From Chloroflexota bacterium (GTDB lineage Bacteria; Chloroflexota; Anaerolineae; UBA1429): a DNA stretch of 64,000 nt. The notes below the pieces were generated by a model. That model searched no databases and was not told where the DNA came from. It was given only the letters and a program-made list of their open reading frames with translations. Shown here in pieces: positions 38,762 through 44,127 of the stretch (positions within the stretch are counted from its first letter, which is position 1; each line of letters opens with the position of its first letter). A program made the translations under genes and the position numbers. The stretch lies in the NCBI GenBank assembly GCA_012729455.1, contig JAAYDC010000012.1, positions 78,758 to 142,757 on the forward strand, in the 5' to 3' direction.

Positions 38762-39766
38762 ATGGCCACCACTCCCCGCCAACGCGTCCTGGATGCCGTC
38801 AATCATCGTCAGCCGGACGTTTGCCCTTGGCAGATCGACCTGACCATCGACGCGCACGACCATGTGGCAGCGGCGCTGCAGGATCCGGATTTTACCTCCA
38901 AAATCGGTAACCACCTTGCGGGCTGCGAAGACGGCTACTTTACCGAGGTTGAGCCAGGCTTTTGGCAGGACCAGTTCGGCATCGTCTGGAACCGCACCAT
39001 CGATAAAGATATCGGCAACGTGCAAACCCTGCTGCTGCCCGAGGCCAGCCTGGCGCATTACCGCTTTCCGCAGCCCGACATGGCGCGCAACGCCGCCATG
39101 TACGAGCGCGTGCTGGCGGACAACCCTGACAAGTTCACCATGGCGGGAGTGGGGTTTTCGATGTACGAGCGCGCCTGGACGCTGCGCGGCATGGAGAACC
39201 TGCTGAGCGACATGATCCTTGAGCCGCACTTTGTCGATGCGCTCATGGATCGCATCCTGGAATACAACCTGCAGGTGATCGACCACCTGCTCGAGTATCC
39301 CTTTGATTGTGTGCGCTTTGGCGACGACTGGGGCGATCAACGCGGGGTGATGATGGGCGCCAAACTGTGGCGGCGCTTTATCAAGCCGCGTATGGCGGCC
39401 ATGTACACGCGCGTCAAGCAAAGCGGACGCTATGTGATGCAGCACTCGTGCGGGGCCGTCCAGGAGCTCTTCCCCGACCTGATCGAGATCGGGCTGGATA
39501 TTTTCAACACCTTTCAGCCCGAAGTGATGGATGTTGATGTCTGTAAACGCGAATATGGCCACCACCTGACCTTTTATGGTGGCATCAGCACCCAGCAGGT
39601 GCTGCCACACTACACGCCAGACCCACTGCGCCGCCACATCCGCGACATGATCGCGCGCATCGGCCGCGATGGCGGCTATATTGTGGCGCCCACGCACGCC
39701 ATCCCGCGCGATGTGCCGGTCGAGAACATCCTGGCGTTTATCGAGACCGTCACCCAGCAAGCGTGA
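38762..39766 (+). CDS. uroporphyrinogen decarboxylase (URO-D) family protein, non-HemE type
   Basis: 334 aa. The layout and motifs (RQPDVCPWQIDLT, GDDWGDQRG, ISTQQVLP, YIVAPTHAIP) resemble URO-D/MtaA-fold proteins. Confidence 0.7.
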   Translation: MATTPRQRVLDAVNHRQPDVCPWQIDLTIDAHDHVAAALQDPDFTSKIGNHLAGCEDGYFTEVEPGFWQDQFGIVWNRTIDKDIGNVQTLLLPEASLAHYRFPQPDMARNAAMYERVLADNPDKFTMAGVGFSMYERAWTLRGMENLLSDMILEPHFVDALMDRILEYNLQVIDHLLEYPFDCVRFGDDWGDQRGVMMGAKLWRRFIKPRMAAMYTRVKQSGRYVMQHSCGAVQELFPDLIEIGLDIFNTFQPEVMDVDVCKREYGHHLTFYGGISTQQVLPHYTPDPLRRHIRDMIARIGRDGGYIVAPTHAIPRDVPVENILAFIETVTQQA

Positions 39767-41019
39767 CAAATCCGCGAGCAAATGCACCGGCAGCGCCCCG
39801 CCAGCTGCATGCCTGGCATGTACTGGTGCTGACCGGCGCGCTCATCTTTCACGTATCGCTCCTGGTATCATGGCGCACCGGGCTGTGGAACCGCTACACC
39901 TTTGATTCGGTTGCCACACACGGCCGTAAGGGCTGGGATTTCTATGCTCTCTACCAGGCTGGCTACAACGCCAGGCACGGCATCTCGGTATACTCGAGCG
40001 ACGAAATCGTCACGCCGGTACACACCCCCTACCGTTACGGGCCGCTGCCCGCCCTCACACTCGGCGCGTTGTTGAGCCTGCTGCCGCCAGTGAGCGCCCT
40101 GTGGGTTTGGGCGGTGACCATCGAGCTGGTGTTGGTCGCCTGCTGCATCTACAGCTGGCGGCTTGCTCCCGACCTGGATACCAAAGTGATCTGCAGCGCT
40201 ATGTGGCTGTGCTATACCCCCTACTACCTCGAGCTTTATCTGGGGCAGTTCACCCTGGTGCTGGCAGCCGGCGTGTTGATGCTGATGAACTGGTTCGCTC
40301 ACCAGCGGCCGCTGGCGAGCGACCTGCTATGGTCGGCCACACTCCTGTGGAAGCCTATGACCGTGCTGCTGGCGCCGGTATGGGCTGCCCGGCGGCGCTG
40401 GCGCGGCATCGCCCTAGCAGCTATGCTCACGGCGCTCACCACGCTGCCCTACCTGCTGGCGTACCCAGATGTCTGGGGGCACCTGGCGTCCAACCTCGAG
40501 CTGCGCCTAGGCAGCCAGTTGGGCAACCTGGGAGTATTGCAGCTCTGGCAGGCACTCTTCCTGTGGCTCTCGCCGGATAGTTCAGAGGGCACAGTGCGCA
40601 CCGTATTAATGGTCTGGTCCGTGCTGGTGGTGCTCATCAGCCTTGTTTGTTCAACATGTTCACCGAATACAAGCTCCTGGAAGAACATCTCTCTATGGTT
40701 GATTGTATTTTATTTGGTGTCCCCGGACGTCTGGGAGCATCACTATGTGCTCCTTGTACCGGTGTTTATTTACTGGCACATCCACTCGCGCTCCAAATGG
40801 GTCTTGATATTGTACGCCGCCATCGCCCTCTGGACCCCCTACCGCCTGATCGACCCGCAAGGCCTGGCTGCCTACGATATGAGCATGCGCTGGCTGCCGC
40901 TCGAGCCGTTATGGCTGAACGCCCTCTATCACGCCTGTAAAGCCGTGCCGGTGCTGATTATATGGGGCACGCTGCTACATCAGCGCGGGTGGTGCGCAGA
41001 GACTCGAATTCTTGACTGA
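39763..41019 (+). CDS. polytopic GT-C type glycosyltransferase (DUF2029/GT87-like)
   Basis: GTG start in a GTGA overlap with the upstream stop. About 10-11 TM helices, and an early loop with GWDFYALYQAG typical of DUF2029 mannosyltransferase-like proteins. Confidence 0.65.
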   Translation: MTNPRANAPAAPRQLHAWHVLVLTGALIFHVSLLVSWRTGLWNRYTFDSVATHGRKGWDFYALYQAGYNARHGISVYSSDEIVTPVHTPYRYGPLPALTLGALLSLLPPVSALWVWAVTIELVLVACCIYSWRLAPDLDTKVICSAMWLCYTPYYLELYLGQFTLVLAAGVLMLMNWFAHQRPLASDLLWSATLLWKPMTVLLAPVWAARRRWRGIALAAMLTALTTLPYLLAYPDVWGHLASNLELRLGSQLGNLGVLQLWQALFLWLSPDSSEGTVRTVLMVWSVLVVLISLVCSTCSPNTSSWKNISLWLIVFYLVSPDVWEHHYVLLVPVFIYWHIHSRSKWVLILYAAIALWTPYRLIDPQGLAAYDMSMRWLPLEPLWLNALYHACKAVPVLIIWGTLLHQRGWCAETRILD

Positions 41020-41067
41020 ATTATACAACAATGCTACACTTAGCCACCCTGTTTGGGAGGTTTCGGT

Positions 41068-42228
41068 ATGTCCGAAGGTTACAGATACTTGGATAATGGC
41101 GCCGCCACACGTCTGGACGAACGCGTGCTGGAGGCGATGACCCCCTTCCTGTTTGAGACCTATACCGTGGCCACCTCGCAGTTTAGCTATTCGCTGGGGA
41201 TCGCCGCGCGTGAAGCCCTTGAGCGGGCCCGCAGCGACATTGCCGCCTCGCTCGGTGCCGCATCGGAGGAGATCATCTTTACATCTGGCTCGACCGAATC
41301 GAGCAATATGGCCATCAAAGGGGTGCCCCACGCGCTGGCCAACAAGGGCAAGCACATCGTCACCACCCGGCTCGAAGACTTTCCGGTGCTCAACAGCGTC
41401 AAAGCCCTCGAACGCGATGGCTATACCGTCACCTGGCTGGATACCGATTCTGACGGCCGCCTGGATCCGGCAGCCCTGGAAGGCGCGATCAGGCCCGATA
41501 CGGTGCTAGTCTCGATTCAGGCCGCCAACCAGGAAATCGGCACCCTGCAGGATCTGGCAGCTCTCGCCGCAATCTGCAAGGCCAGAGGCGTGGTACTGCA
41601 CAGCGATGCCACCCATACCTATCCGCGCTTGCCGCTGGATGTGAGCAGCCTGAGTGTTGACCTGCTGACGCTCAGCACCGAGCTGGTGCACGGGCCCAAA
41701 GGGGTTGGCGCGCTGTATCTGCGCAAAGGCACCCCGCTGCACAAATGGATGGATGGCGGTTTTCAGGAGTTTAACCTGCGCGCCGGGAGTGAAAACATTG
41801 CCGGCGCCGTCGGCATGGCACGTGCTGTCGAGCTGGTCACCCCCGAAGAGACGGCCGGCATCCAGGCTATGCGCGATGCCGCACTTGAGCAGCTGCTGGC
41901 GATTCCGCAGTCAATCCTCAACGGGCATGCCACCTGGCGCACGCCGCAAAACGTCAACGTCTCATTCCGCTTTGTAGAGGGAGAGGCGATTACCCTGCAC
42001 ATGGATTTGCGCGGTTATGCCCTCAGCACAGGCTCGGCCTGCTTTAGCCGCGCCTTGGAGGCCAGCCACGTGATCCTGGGCATCGGGGGAGACCACGAAC
42101 GTGCCCACGGCTCGGTGCGCCTCACCTTTGGGCGCTACAACACACTTGATGATGCCACCGGTGCCGCCAATGCACTGGCGGAAGTGATCGAGAGACTGCG
42201 GGCGATCAGCCCGTTAGGAAAGGATTAG
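41068..42228 (+). CDS. IscS/NifS-like class V fold protein lacking the PLP-binding lysine
   Basis: Collinear with E. coli IscS (IIFTSGSTESSNMAIKG, HSDATH, HGPKGVGALYL, STGSAC). The SGHK motif reads STEL and the TEH motif reads LED. GGAGG RBS before ATG 41068. Confidence 0.85.
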   Translation: MSEGYRYLDNGAATRLDERVLEAMTPFLFETYTVATSQFSYSLGIAAREALERARSDIAASLGAASEEIIFTSGSTESSNMAIKGVPHALANKGKHIVTTRLEDFPVLNSVKALERDGYTVTWLDTDSDGRLDPAALEGAIRPDTVLVSIQAANQEIGTLQDLAALAAICKARGVVLHSDATHTYPRLPLDVSSLSVDLLTLSTELVHGPKGVGALYLRKGTPLHKWMDGGFQEFNLRAGSENIAGAVGMARAVELVTPEETAGIQAMRDAALEQLLAIPQSILNGHATWRTPQNVNVSFRFVEGEAITLHMDLRGYALSTGSACFSRALEASHVILGIGGDHERAHGSVRLTFGRYNTLDDATGAANALAEVIERLRAISPLGKD

Positions 42229-42871: not shown

Positions 42872-42877
42872 GGCGGT

Positions 42878-43051
42878 ATGAAGCGCCTGACACGCCGCCA
42901 GTTTGACCTGCGGGTGGCCAAGCCAGCCGATTTCTCCCTGAAAGAGCTGCTTGTGTGGCCGCGTGTCGACTTTGATGGAGAACTCGCGCTTACCGACAGC
43001 GAGGTGCTGGATGAAAATTTTGGTTTCATCAGTCAACCTCGTGTATACTGA
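42878..43051 (+). CDS. possible small ORF (57 aa), unknown
   Basis: ATG 7 nt after the iscU-DUF59 stop. MKRLTRRQFDLRVAKPADFSLKELLVWPRVDFDGELALTDSEVLDENFGFISQPRVY. GC3-rich in the first two thirds. Below the ORF-track cutoff, with no recognised family. Confidence 0.25.
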   Translation: MKRLTRRQFDLRVAKPADFSLKELLVWPRVDFDGELALTDSEVLDENFGFISQPRVY

Positions 43052-43104
43052 GATTGGTGTTGTATTGGTTGTAACCTATTTGATCGATAACAAAGGAGTA
43101 TAGT

Positions 43105-43500
43105 ATGACCTCTATCGGAGAAAAGCTGCAGCACGCAGACTGGAAGTCGGAAAAACACGTGCCGGCGATCGAATGCCCGGACACGGTCAAAGCCGGCGAA
43201 CTCTTTACTGTCAACGTCAGCGTCGGTAAAGATATCCCGCACCCCAACACGGTCGAGCATCACATCAGCTGGATCAGCGTCTATTTTCTGCCGGATGAAG
43301 CCAAGAACCCGTACGAGGTTGGGACGTTTACCTTTGCGGGCCACGGCCAGTCTGCCGCAGGTCCCAACCAGGGTCCCGTCCATTGCGAGCCGAATGTCAC
43401 CGCCAGACTCAAGCTTACCCAAAGCGGCACCCTCTATGTATTGGAGCTGTGCAACATTCACGGTCTGTGGGAAAACAGCCAACGCATTACCGTTAGCTAA
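43105..43500 (+). CDS. sor: superoxide reductase (1Fe-SOR/neelaredoxin type)
   Basis: EKHVP, HPNTVEHHISWI and CNIHGLWE iron-ligand motifs. AAGGAG RBS. Confidence 0.9.
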   Translation: MTSIGEKLQHADWKSEKHVPAIECPDTVKAGELFTVNVSVGKDIPHPNTVEHHISWISVYFLPDEAKNPYEVGTFTFAGHGQSAAGPNQGPVHCEPNVTARLKLTQSGTLYVLELCNIHGLWENSQRITVS

Positions 43501-43530: not shown

Positions 43531-44079
43531 ATGCGCGACATGACCAAAGCCAACGTATTGAGTGCCTACTCGGGCGAAAGCCAAGCCCACATGCGCTATG
43601 CGATCTGGTCGGATAAAGCCGCCAAGGACGGGTTTGCCAACGTCGCCAGGCTTTTCCGGGCAGTTTCCCATTCCGAGAAAATCCATGCCAAGCGGCACTT
43701 CATGGCCGTCGCTGACTCATTTGGTGCAGCGGATAACTTGGCCGGAGCCGGCTTCGGTTACGGAGAGACGCTACAGAACCTCGAGGTAGCGGTTGGCGGC
43801 GAAGAGTTCGAGATCGCCGAAATGTACCCGGTTTATAAAGCAGTGGCCGATCTTCAGGCCGAAAAGTTTGCCTCGGTTGGGTTCTTCCGCGCCCTGGAAG
43901 CGGAAAAAGTGCATGCTGCCATGTTCCACCGTGCGATCGAAGCTGCCAAGGCCGGCAAGGATGTGGAACTGGGCCCGATTCACGTTTGCCCAGACTGTGG
44001 TTTTACCATGGAAGGGGATGCCCCCGATCGCTGCCCGGTTTGCGGCGAACCCAAGGCGAATTTCGTCACCTACGCCTGA
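43531..44079 (+). CDS. rbr: rubrerythrin
   Basis: Di-iron ExxH motifs (ESQAHMRY, EKIHAKRH, EEFEIAEMY, EKVHAAMF) plus C-terminal rubredoxin CPDCG...CPVCG. Confidence 0.9.
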   Translation: MRDMTKANVLSAYSGESQAHMRYAIWSDKAAKDGFANVARLFRAVSHSEKIHAKRHFMAVADSFGAADNLAGAGFGYGETLQNLEVAVGGEEFEIAEMYPVYKAVADLQAEKFASVGFFRALEAEKVHAAMFHRAIEAAKAGKDVELGPIHVCPDCGFTMEGDAPDRCPVCGEPKANFVTYA

Positions 44080-44088
44080 GATGCCCAT

Positions 44089-44127
44089 CAAGACGGCCGG
44101 TTGGTTGACCGGCCGTCTTGTTTGTTG
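44089..44127 (+). terminator. intrinsic terminator after rubrerythrin
   Basis: Perfect 12-bp stem CAAGACGGCCGG / CCGGCCGTCTTG, 8-nt loop, followed by TTTGTTG. Confidence 0.75.

Follow-up and report, generated by a model that had tools for sequence, protein, structure and literature searches.

What can a homolog of the cysteine desulfurase IscS still contribute to the assembly of iron–sulfur (Fe–S) clusters once it has lost the lysine that binds its pyridoxal phosphate (PLP) cofactor? This question is raised by a 64,000-nt stretch of DNA (hereafter, the window) from a Chloroflexota bacterium (Anaerolineae; UBA1429; GenBank assembly GCA_012729455.1), comprising positions 78,758–142,757 of contig JAAYDC010000012.1 (C7:78758-142757) in an assembly of 2.64 Mb and 99.2% completeness. 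One of its genes encodes a protein, here named IscS*, that we assign to the class-I IscS/NifS fold and that lacks the Schiff-base lysine; the next gene encodes an IscU scaffold fused to a DUF59 domain. The locus touches two questions, namely, how minimal ISC-type systems of strict anaerobes are supplied with sulfur and what role lysine-less IscS proteins play, both raised by Archaeoglobus fulgidus structures and by work on the MIS (minimal ISC system) and SMS systems. Our favored explanation, which we hold to be moderately probable, is that IscS* is a catalytically dead protein of the Methanosarcina acetivorans IscS1 family and the obligate partner of IscU-DUF59 in a second, minimal ISC-type Fe–S assembly unit.

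The first-pass annotation of the window had described an IscS homolog in which SGHK reads STEL (Lys to Leu and His to Glu, with no frameshift), TEHK reads LEDF, HVDATQ reads HSDATH and the GNP motif is lost, with STGSAC, GPKG and FGR retained. Codon readings (Table 1) and alignments agree with this description throughout and add two losses that it did not list, at N155 and T243. For the reference alignment, Escherichia coli IscS (NC_000913), A. fulgidus (Af) IscS, the canonical paralog and 81 family members, the window protein included, were aligned using MAFFT. This shifted the GNP loop of E. coli IscS by three columns; for this loop, the reading was taken from a HMMER alignment to Af IscS and from the alignment to the canonical paralog. 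An apparent equivalence of W45 to Y41 was not used, as it falls in the loop misplaced by MAFFT. In E. coli numbering, the window protein carries the changes K206L, H205E, H104D, Q183H, N155Q and T243S and keeps D180, T76, S203, R354 (R351 in the window protein) and C328 (C325). The assignment of the lysine column, for which the annotation had proposed a profile alignment, holds; HMMER puts L206 on Af D199, the residue that is Lys in the D199K mutant (4r5f), and the E. coli K206 column contains Lys in none of the 81 members (Thr in 50, Leu in 28 and Met, Val and Arg in one each).

Across the family, the remodeled site shows two behaviors. Columns 206, 203 (Ser, Thr or Ala) and 243 (mostly Val or Leu), on the Schiff-base and phosphate side, are variable, as expected once function is lost. 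On the ring side, the new residues are fixed, with Asp at column 104 and Gln at column 155 in 81/81 members, His at column 183 in 79/81 and A/TVATS in place of the GNPSS loop in every member; the former PLP pocket is, therefore, still under constraint. D180, R354 and C328 are each unchanged in 81/81 members and T76 is unchanged in 77/81, while column 205 is His in 76 of the 81 and Glu in the window. Because it has neither the Schiff-base lysine nor the ligands of the PLP ring and phosphate, IscS* cannot form an internal aldimine and is expected to perform no cysteine desulfuration, as the annotation had argued when it set the protein apart from conventional desulfurases; its sequence contradicts the public label ‘cysteine desulfurase’. 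Could it still be a PLP or pyridoxamine phosphate (PMP) enzyme, with desulfurase or other activity, that uses another lysine or holds its cofactor non-covalently? The retention of D180, T76, R354 and, in most members, H205 would fit such an enzyme, as would a nearly invariant K226 in the IscS* family and the precedent of Af IscS, which binds PMP although lysine-less. We nevertheless regard this as very unlikely, given that H104, N155, Q183 and T243 are all replaced, S203 is variable, the window has Glu at 205 and the lysine column varies as a position without function would.

The mobile cysteine loop and the docking face for IscU are preserved. STGSACFS, which contains the putative persulfide or ligand cysteine C325, occurs in 121/121 close homologs of IscS*. 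Residues of the IscU footprint on E. coli IscS, taken from Shi 2010 (PMC2854127), are invariant in 81/81 members (E309, G310, E311, E347, L380, R381, S384, P385 and L386, which include the C-terminal LRxxSPL). The TusA-docking residues E49 and D52 (acidic) and R55 are also kept, although these discriminate weakly, as canonical paralogs retain most of them. Arginines of the CyaY/IscX/ThiI footprint (R220, R223, R225, R237 and R340) are not conserved in the IscS* family.

Profile and structure comparisons place the protein in the same fold. Pfam Aminotran_5 (PF00266, aminotransferase class V) matches IscS* at E = 1e-65, and every NCBIfam desulfurase equivalog model scores it below the curated cut-off; the top match is NifS with 393.8 bits (cut-off 530.75), and the IscS model gives 341 against a cut-off of 643. 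Among solved structures, A. fulgidus IscS2 is the nearest match (4eb5/4hvk; E = 5e-92). An AlphaFold2 (AF2) model with a predicted template modeling score (pTM) of 0.80 matches IscS, NFS1 and Af IscS at TM values of about 0.8 (0.82 for IscS/NFS1). As start codon, ATG 41068 is favored over TTG 41053 because GGGAGG lies 7 nt upstream and family members are 386–387 aa long.

Table 1 Coordinates of the IscS* gene, its active-site motifs and neighboring features in the window.
Feature	Position	Strand	Basis or remark
IscS* gene, lysine-less, PLP-site-remodeled class-I IscS/NifS-fold protein, 386 aa	41068..42228	+	Pfam, NCBIfam, alignments, AF2 model
TVATS, in place of GNPSS loop	41164-41178	+	Codon reading
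L-E-D-F, PLP-stacking His (E. coli H104) replaced by Asp	41371..41382	+	Asp in 81/81 family members
HSDATH	41599-41616	+	Codon reading
S203 T204 E205 L206, replacing S-G-H-K Schiff-base motif	41674..41685	+	In-frame AGC ACC GAG CTG; Leu206 is CTG 41683-41685
GPKG	41692-41703	+	Codon reading
S-T-G-S-A-C mobile-loop motif with persulfide/ligand cysteine C325	42025..42042	+	Cys in 81/81 members
FGR	42127-42135	+	Codon reading
Promoter-like site TTGACT, 17 nt, TACACT, with TG	41012..41040	+	Consensus scan, upstream of IscS*; weak (3 sites versus 1.7 expected)
IscU scaffold (Cys, Asp, Cys, His-Cys ligands, LPPIK) fused to Cys-less DUF59, 212 aa	42233..42871	+	4 nt past IscS* stop; NifU_N 1.5e-40, FeS_assembly_P 5e-11
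233-nt spacer, deletion scar where three same-family genomes carry TusA, DsrE2-like and 1.7-3.4 kb more	42872..43104	.	Comparison, tblastn
1Fe superoxide reductase, desulfoferrodoxin family	43105..43500	+	PF01880 at 1.7e-33
Rubrerythrin	43531..44079	+	PF02915, PF21349
Intrinsic-terminator-like hairpin, 14-bp stem, end of putative unit	44089..44120	+	Terminator scan

These replacements characterize a large family. In none of the 120 closest database homologs (67–72% identity), entries from Anaerolineae or Chloroflexota labeled ‘cysteine desulfurase’, is the lysine present, and EDF and STGSACFS occur in every one. When species-representative genomes were scanned, at least 536 stretches proved to encode a relative; the 80 best matches, which are the related loci counted below, share 61–69% identity with the window protein and the same replacements, and none has the lysine. 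A pseudogene or frameshift artifact was ruled out by the intact frame and by the occurrence of the same replacements in every relative. Among 133 near-invariant columns, the window protein deviates at three, all conservatively, and its IscU-DUF59 neighbor deviates at three of 74. Judged by this conservation, IscS* is shown to be under strong purifying selection.

The 80 loci come from bacteria of four or more phyla, Chloroflexota and Actinomycetota among them (Anaerolineae, Dehalococcoidia, Syntrophales, Thermoleophilia/Gaiellales and Clostridia) and to archaea, including several methanogen orders (the isolate Methanolobus psychrotolerans, Methanosarcinaceae, Methanofastidiosum and Methanomassiliicoccaceae). 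Branches within the family are very short compared to the outgroups, and archaeal and non-Anaerolineae bacterial sequences are intermixed, which fits horizontal spread. A larger tree, built with FastTree only, comprised 146 sequences among the nearest 50%-identity cluster representatives. Of these, 28 lack the Schiff-base lysine, and the tree requires five to eight independent state changes. With at least five such changes, lysine loss is recurrent in the IscS/NifS enzyme family. The window protein belongs to a clade of 16 sequences (support 99), 15 of which are lysine-less, and Af IscS to a separate clade of four (support 99); this placement rules out membership of the window protein in the Af IscS clade. 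Support for the order of the deeper branches is poor.

A member of this exact family has already been noted in M. acetivorans. Deere et al. 2020 (PMC7585200) described IscS1 (MA0808) as lacking PLP-binding residues and the catalytic lysine; it has STGSACFS. Its partner IscU1 (MA0807) measures 24.2 kDa, and the isc1 cluster further includes MA0809 (‘DrsE superfamily’) and MA0810 (‘SirA-like’, TusA-like) (PMC7585200). Compared to the IscS1 sequence in Fig. S2 of that paper, which was machine-read from the PDF and may contain a few wrong letters, IscS* shows 61% identity over the full length (E = 1e-172); the printed IscS1 and its Methanolobus ortholog share 71%. On the basis of these identities, we assign the window gene as a bacterial ortholog of M. 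acetivorans IscS1. The two proteins share the signatures AVATS, EDFP, NQEIG, SAHT, DGGFQEFNLRAG, STGSACFSR and IGGDHERAHGS, and both have an enlarged IscU partner (24.2 kDa in M. acetivorans and 212 aa in the window). The window differs from isc1 in its bacterial host (Anaerolineae), in the deletion of the TusA-like and DrsE-like neighbors and in Glu at H205. The window protein, thus, belongs to a family that spans both domains and does not extend a peculiarity confined to archaea.

Structures and assays of Af IscS likewise provide a known case of a naturally lysine-less IscS with an IscU partner. This protein has D199 in place of the lysine, shows no desulfurase activity, bound PMP and provides a Cys ligand to [2Fe–2S] on IscU (PMC8918507; PMC7585200); the first-pass annotation had correctly described its lack of the lysine and of desulfurase activity and its complex with IscU. 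Its proposal of a bacterial counterpart extending Af IscS stands insofar as a lysine-less IscS is paired with an IscU fusion; the window protein, however, lies in a separate clade, is an ortholog of IscS1 and belongs to a two-domain family. With A. fulgidus IscS2–IscU (4EB5, 4EB7 and 4HVK; D199K, 4R5F) it shares the missing lysine, the retained Cys loop and IscU-docking residues and the fold (TM about 0.8). By contrast, H104, N155, S203 and the GNPSS loop are intact in Af IscS, and PMP or PLP is bound; in the window family, H104, N155, Q183, T243 and GNPSS are all substituted. The texts consulted do not describe a DUF59 fusion for Af IscU, whereas one is present in the window. Features in common with canonical class-I desulfurases (E. 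coli IscS, NifS and NFS1) are the fold, the dimer-type architecture, the mobile Cys loop, R354 and the C-terminal IscU-binding helix. The two-gene IscS–IscU layout is shared with canonical IscS and with MIS-type pairs, and the window pair resembles the latter in lacking HscAB, Fdx and IscA among its cluster neighbors. In the literature searched, we found no description of bacterial members of the IscS1 family, the depth of the PLP-site remodeling, the cassette or the deletion variant reported here.

The genomic setting connects the pair to sulfur carriers. IscU adjoins IscS* in 77 of the 80 loci, and the full DUF59 fusion was recovered in 72 of them by tblastn of neighbor proteins; the IscU ligand residues are conserved across related loci, and DUF59 lacks its usual cysteine. 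TusA is adjacent in 70/80 loci and a DsrE2-like protein in 65/80, several of the gaps being contig ends. In the cassette TusA, the cysteine of CPVP is invariant; one cysteine of the DsrE2-like protein (PF13686) is invariant, too. Most lineages show the order TusA, DsrE2-like, IscS*, IscU-DUF59, and Anaerolineae show the order IscS*, IscU-DUF59, TusA, DsrE2-like. The latter is followed, after 1.7–3.4 kb, by superoxide reductase (SOR) in three genomes of the same family as the window (G031, G074 and G115), with rubrerythrin (Rbr) after SOR in G115, the sole stretch reaching that far. Extended forms of the cassette were observed in some Anaerolineae (L015 3369-8825, L016 and L019) as ferredoxin, CysK, IscU, a CysE-DUF59 fusion, IscS*, ferritin, IscU-DUF59 and TusA, the serine acetyltransferase–DUF59 fusion being unusual. 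The cassette of Dehalococcoidia is flanked by a canonical cysK-cysE-iscS-iscU operon.

In the window, only a short spacer separates IscU-DUF59 from SOR. No remnant of TusA or DsrE2 was detected in it by tblastn, and its translations contain no CPxP, including that of a 57-codon open reading frame (42878-43051), which has no similarity to TusA or DsrE2 and no support as a gene. A tblastn search likewise found no orthologous TusA/DsrE2 pair elsewhere in the window genome. As all three same-family genomes carry both genes, we interpret the window as a deletion variant, in which SOR and Rbr have, as a consequence, come to lie next to the IscS*/IscU-DUF59 pair. Two other loci of the genome encode related domains. 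On contig C12, TusA-like and DsrE-like domains (78078-78788) form part of an 846-aa open frame, a fused multidomain sulfur-transfer protein with only distant similarity (28% and 38% identity) to the cassette proteins. On contig C10 (L021 307-1698), a YeeE/YedE-like membrane protein precedes a 67-aa TusA-like protein with CPQP; the two form a YeeE/YeeD-type pair that resembles those for thiosulfate uptake and may offer another source of sulfur carriers.

The deletion also bears on whether the gene is still functional. The longest terminal branches of the family are those of the window copy and of L023, its nearest relative (0.47 and 0.35, respectively, versus a median of 0.12), which both lack TusA and DsrE2 and have Glu for H205, as might be seen in a decaying copy left functionless by the loss of the two carriers. 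Such decay is, however, extremely improbable in view of the intact frame, the good Shine–Dalgarno sequence and the few, conservative deviations of IscS* and IscU-DUF59 noted above.

We assessed the remaining Fe–S machinery of the genome. A second, canonical desulfurase, which the first-pass annotation had suggested looking for, is encoded on contig C12 (52481-54752) in an operon of cysE, iscS (400 aa, with SGHK, GNPSS and EHH) and iscU (130 aa); this IscS scores 522 bits on the NifS model (cut-off 530.75). Contig C16 additionally encodes a class-II-like desulfurase-family protein. The SufB/D core, present in 14/14 control genomes, gave no match in the window genome, and no SufC was found above the cut-off despite 99.2% completeness. 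Fe–S assembly, thus, seems to be based on two IscS–IscU pairs alone, one canonical and one lysine-less, with no SUF or SMS. Of 120 genomes sampled from the class, 20 contain an IscS* ortholog (at least 64% identity), and all 20 also have a canonical IscS-like paralog at about 41–47% identity. A strong SufB/D match was found in 0/20 holders (a single weak SUFBD-core match in 13 and none in seven), compared to strong pairs in 59/100 other genomes; as related genomes are not independent, these figures are given as counts and not as a test. The weak match of the 13 holders lies in an open frame of ~320–490 aa, possibly an SMS-type SmsB. Because no holder in the sampled class has a strong SufB/D match, the IscS* family, being large (at least 536 stretches), highly conserved and found across domains, is probably significant for Fe–S biogenesis in anaerobic consortia.

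The constant company of a canonical paralog raises the possibility that IscS* is a pseudoenzyme regulator that competes or heterodimerizes with canonical IscS or sequesters IscU, tuning sulfur flow under, for example, oxidative stress. The retained IscU-docking surface and the stress genes adjoining IscS* agree with such a role. We consider it quite unlikely, however; IscS* comes with its own scaffold gene in nearly all loci and with its own sulfur carriers, resembling a self-contained unit that moves as a cassette between phyla and domains, and heterodimers with many unrelated host IscS proteins are unlikely.

A further issue is the origin of the sulfur. The first-pass annotation had taken the missing lysine to imply direct use of sulfide. 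This does not follow, as TusA and DsrE2-like genes are adjacent in most loci and the canonical operon in the genome can supply persulfide; the frequency of both carriers beside the pair instead points to a persulfide relay. A pathway in which IscS* and IscU-DUF59 build clusters out of Fe2+ and free sulfide, independently of any persulfide donor, IscS* merely templating or ligating, is still conceivable. It would be compatible with the absence of PLP chemistry, the lack of TusA and DsrE2 at the window locus and of their orthologs in the genome, the distribution of IscS* among anaerobes without canonical SUF and the precedent of sulfide-dependent Fe–S assembly, which has been demonstrated with the SMS system and suggested for Af IscS. 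We judge it unlikely, though, as a TusA with an invariant cysteine and a DsrE2-like protein would be unneeded if free sulfide were enough, the invariant mobile-loop Cys and R354 exceed the needs of a passive template and the canonical IscS of the window genome is able to donate persulfide. That two persulfide carriers accompany the pair almost universally speaks against direct sulfide use as the general rule.

Under the explanation that we favor, a catalytically dead IscS* working with IscU-DUF59, IscS* would dimerize and dock IscU-DUF59 as in the (IscS–IscU)2 complexes of E. coli and A. fulgidus. Cys325 would either carry a persulfide received from outside or act as the fourth ligand of a nascent [2Fe–2S], as in Af IscS, and the DUF59 domain would aid cluster transfer to targets. 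In most genomes, sulfur would probably come from the co-encoded TusA and DsrE2-like carriers. With these deleted in the window genome, the donor there would have to be the canonical CysE–IscS system, another TusA-like protein or free sulfide. The genome, thus, represents a useful natural variant with two IscS–IscU pairs, of which the lysine-less pair is devoid of TusA and DsrE2 carriers yet still constrained.

Several points weigh against this explanation. The fixed D104, Q155 and H183 and the AVATSQF loop suggest that the old pocket may have gained a new ligand or activity that our model does not include. Confidence of the AF2 model is low precisely in the three active-site loops (residues 30–42, 228–240 and 316–346). 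With TusA and DsrE2 missing at the window, the relay part is inapplicable in cis here. Co-transcription with SOR and Rbr, discussed below, rests on a single point, the lack of a predicted terminator before 44089. Lastly, expression of M. acetivorans IscS1 by itself yielded insoluble protein in inclusion bodies (PMC7585200), and the family is known from sequence alone. A more far-reaching idea, which we offer tentatively and with more doubt than conviction, is that IscS1-type proteins are the hub of a cysteine-independent Fe–S route in anaerobes. The loop Cys would take up sulfane sulfur from TusA/DsrE2 or sulfide, the former PLP pocket (invariant D104, Q155, D180, H183 and AVATSQF) would accommodate a new ligand, for example iron, and the window would be a natural TusA/DsrE2-less variant revealing a self-sufficient IscS*–IscU-DUF59 core wired to SOR and rubrerythrin for cluster rebuilding after oxygen exposure.

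SOR and Rbr are probably co-transcribed with the IscS*–IscU-DUF59 pair. Their position directly downstream suggests a unit that serves to form or restore clusters during oxidative stress. In 10/80 loci, SOR or Rbr occurs at a distance of up to 5 kb, which we roughly estimate to be well above chance placement of low-copy genes. Other redox-defense genes were seen after the cassette in relatives, at L018 9446-12105 and L015 8866-10045 (DJ-1/PfpI, glutaredoxin, a ferredoxin-thioredoxin-reductase-like protein, AhpC and hemerythrin), echoing the arrangement of SOR and Rbr in the window. Upstream of IscS*, a URO-D-family gene and a GT87 glycosyltransferase gene (window 38762-41019) are syntenic in at least one other Anaerolineae metagenome-assembled genome (L018 1064-3404).

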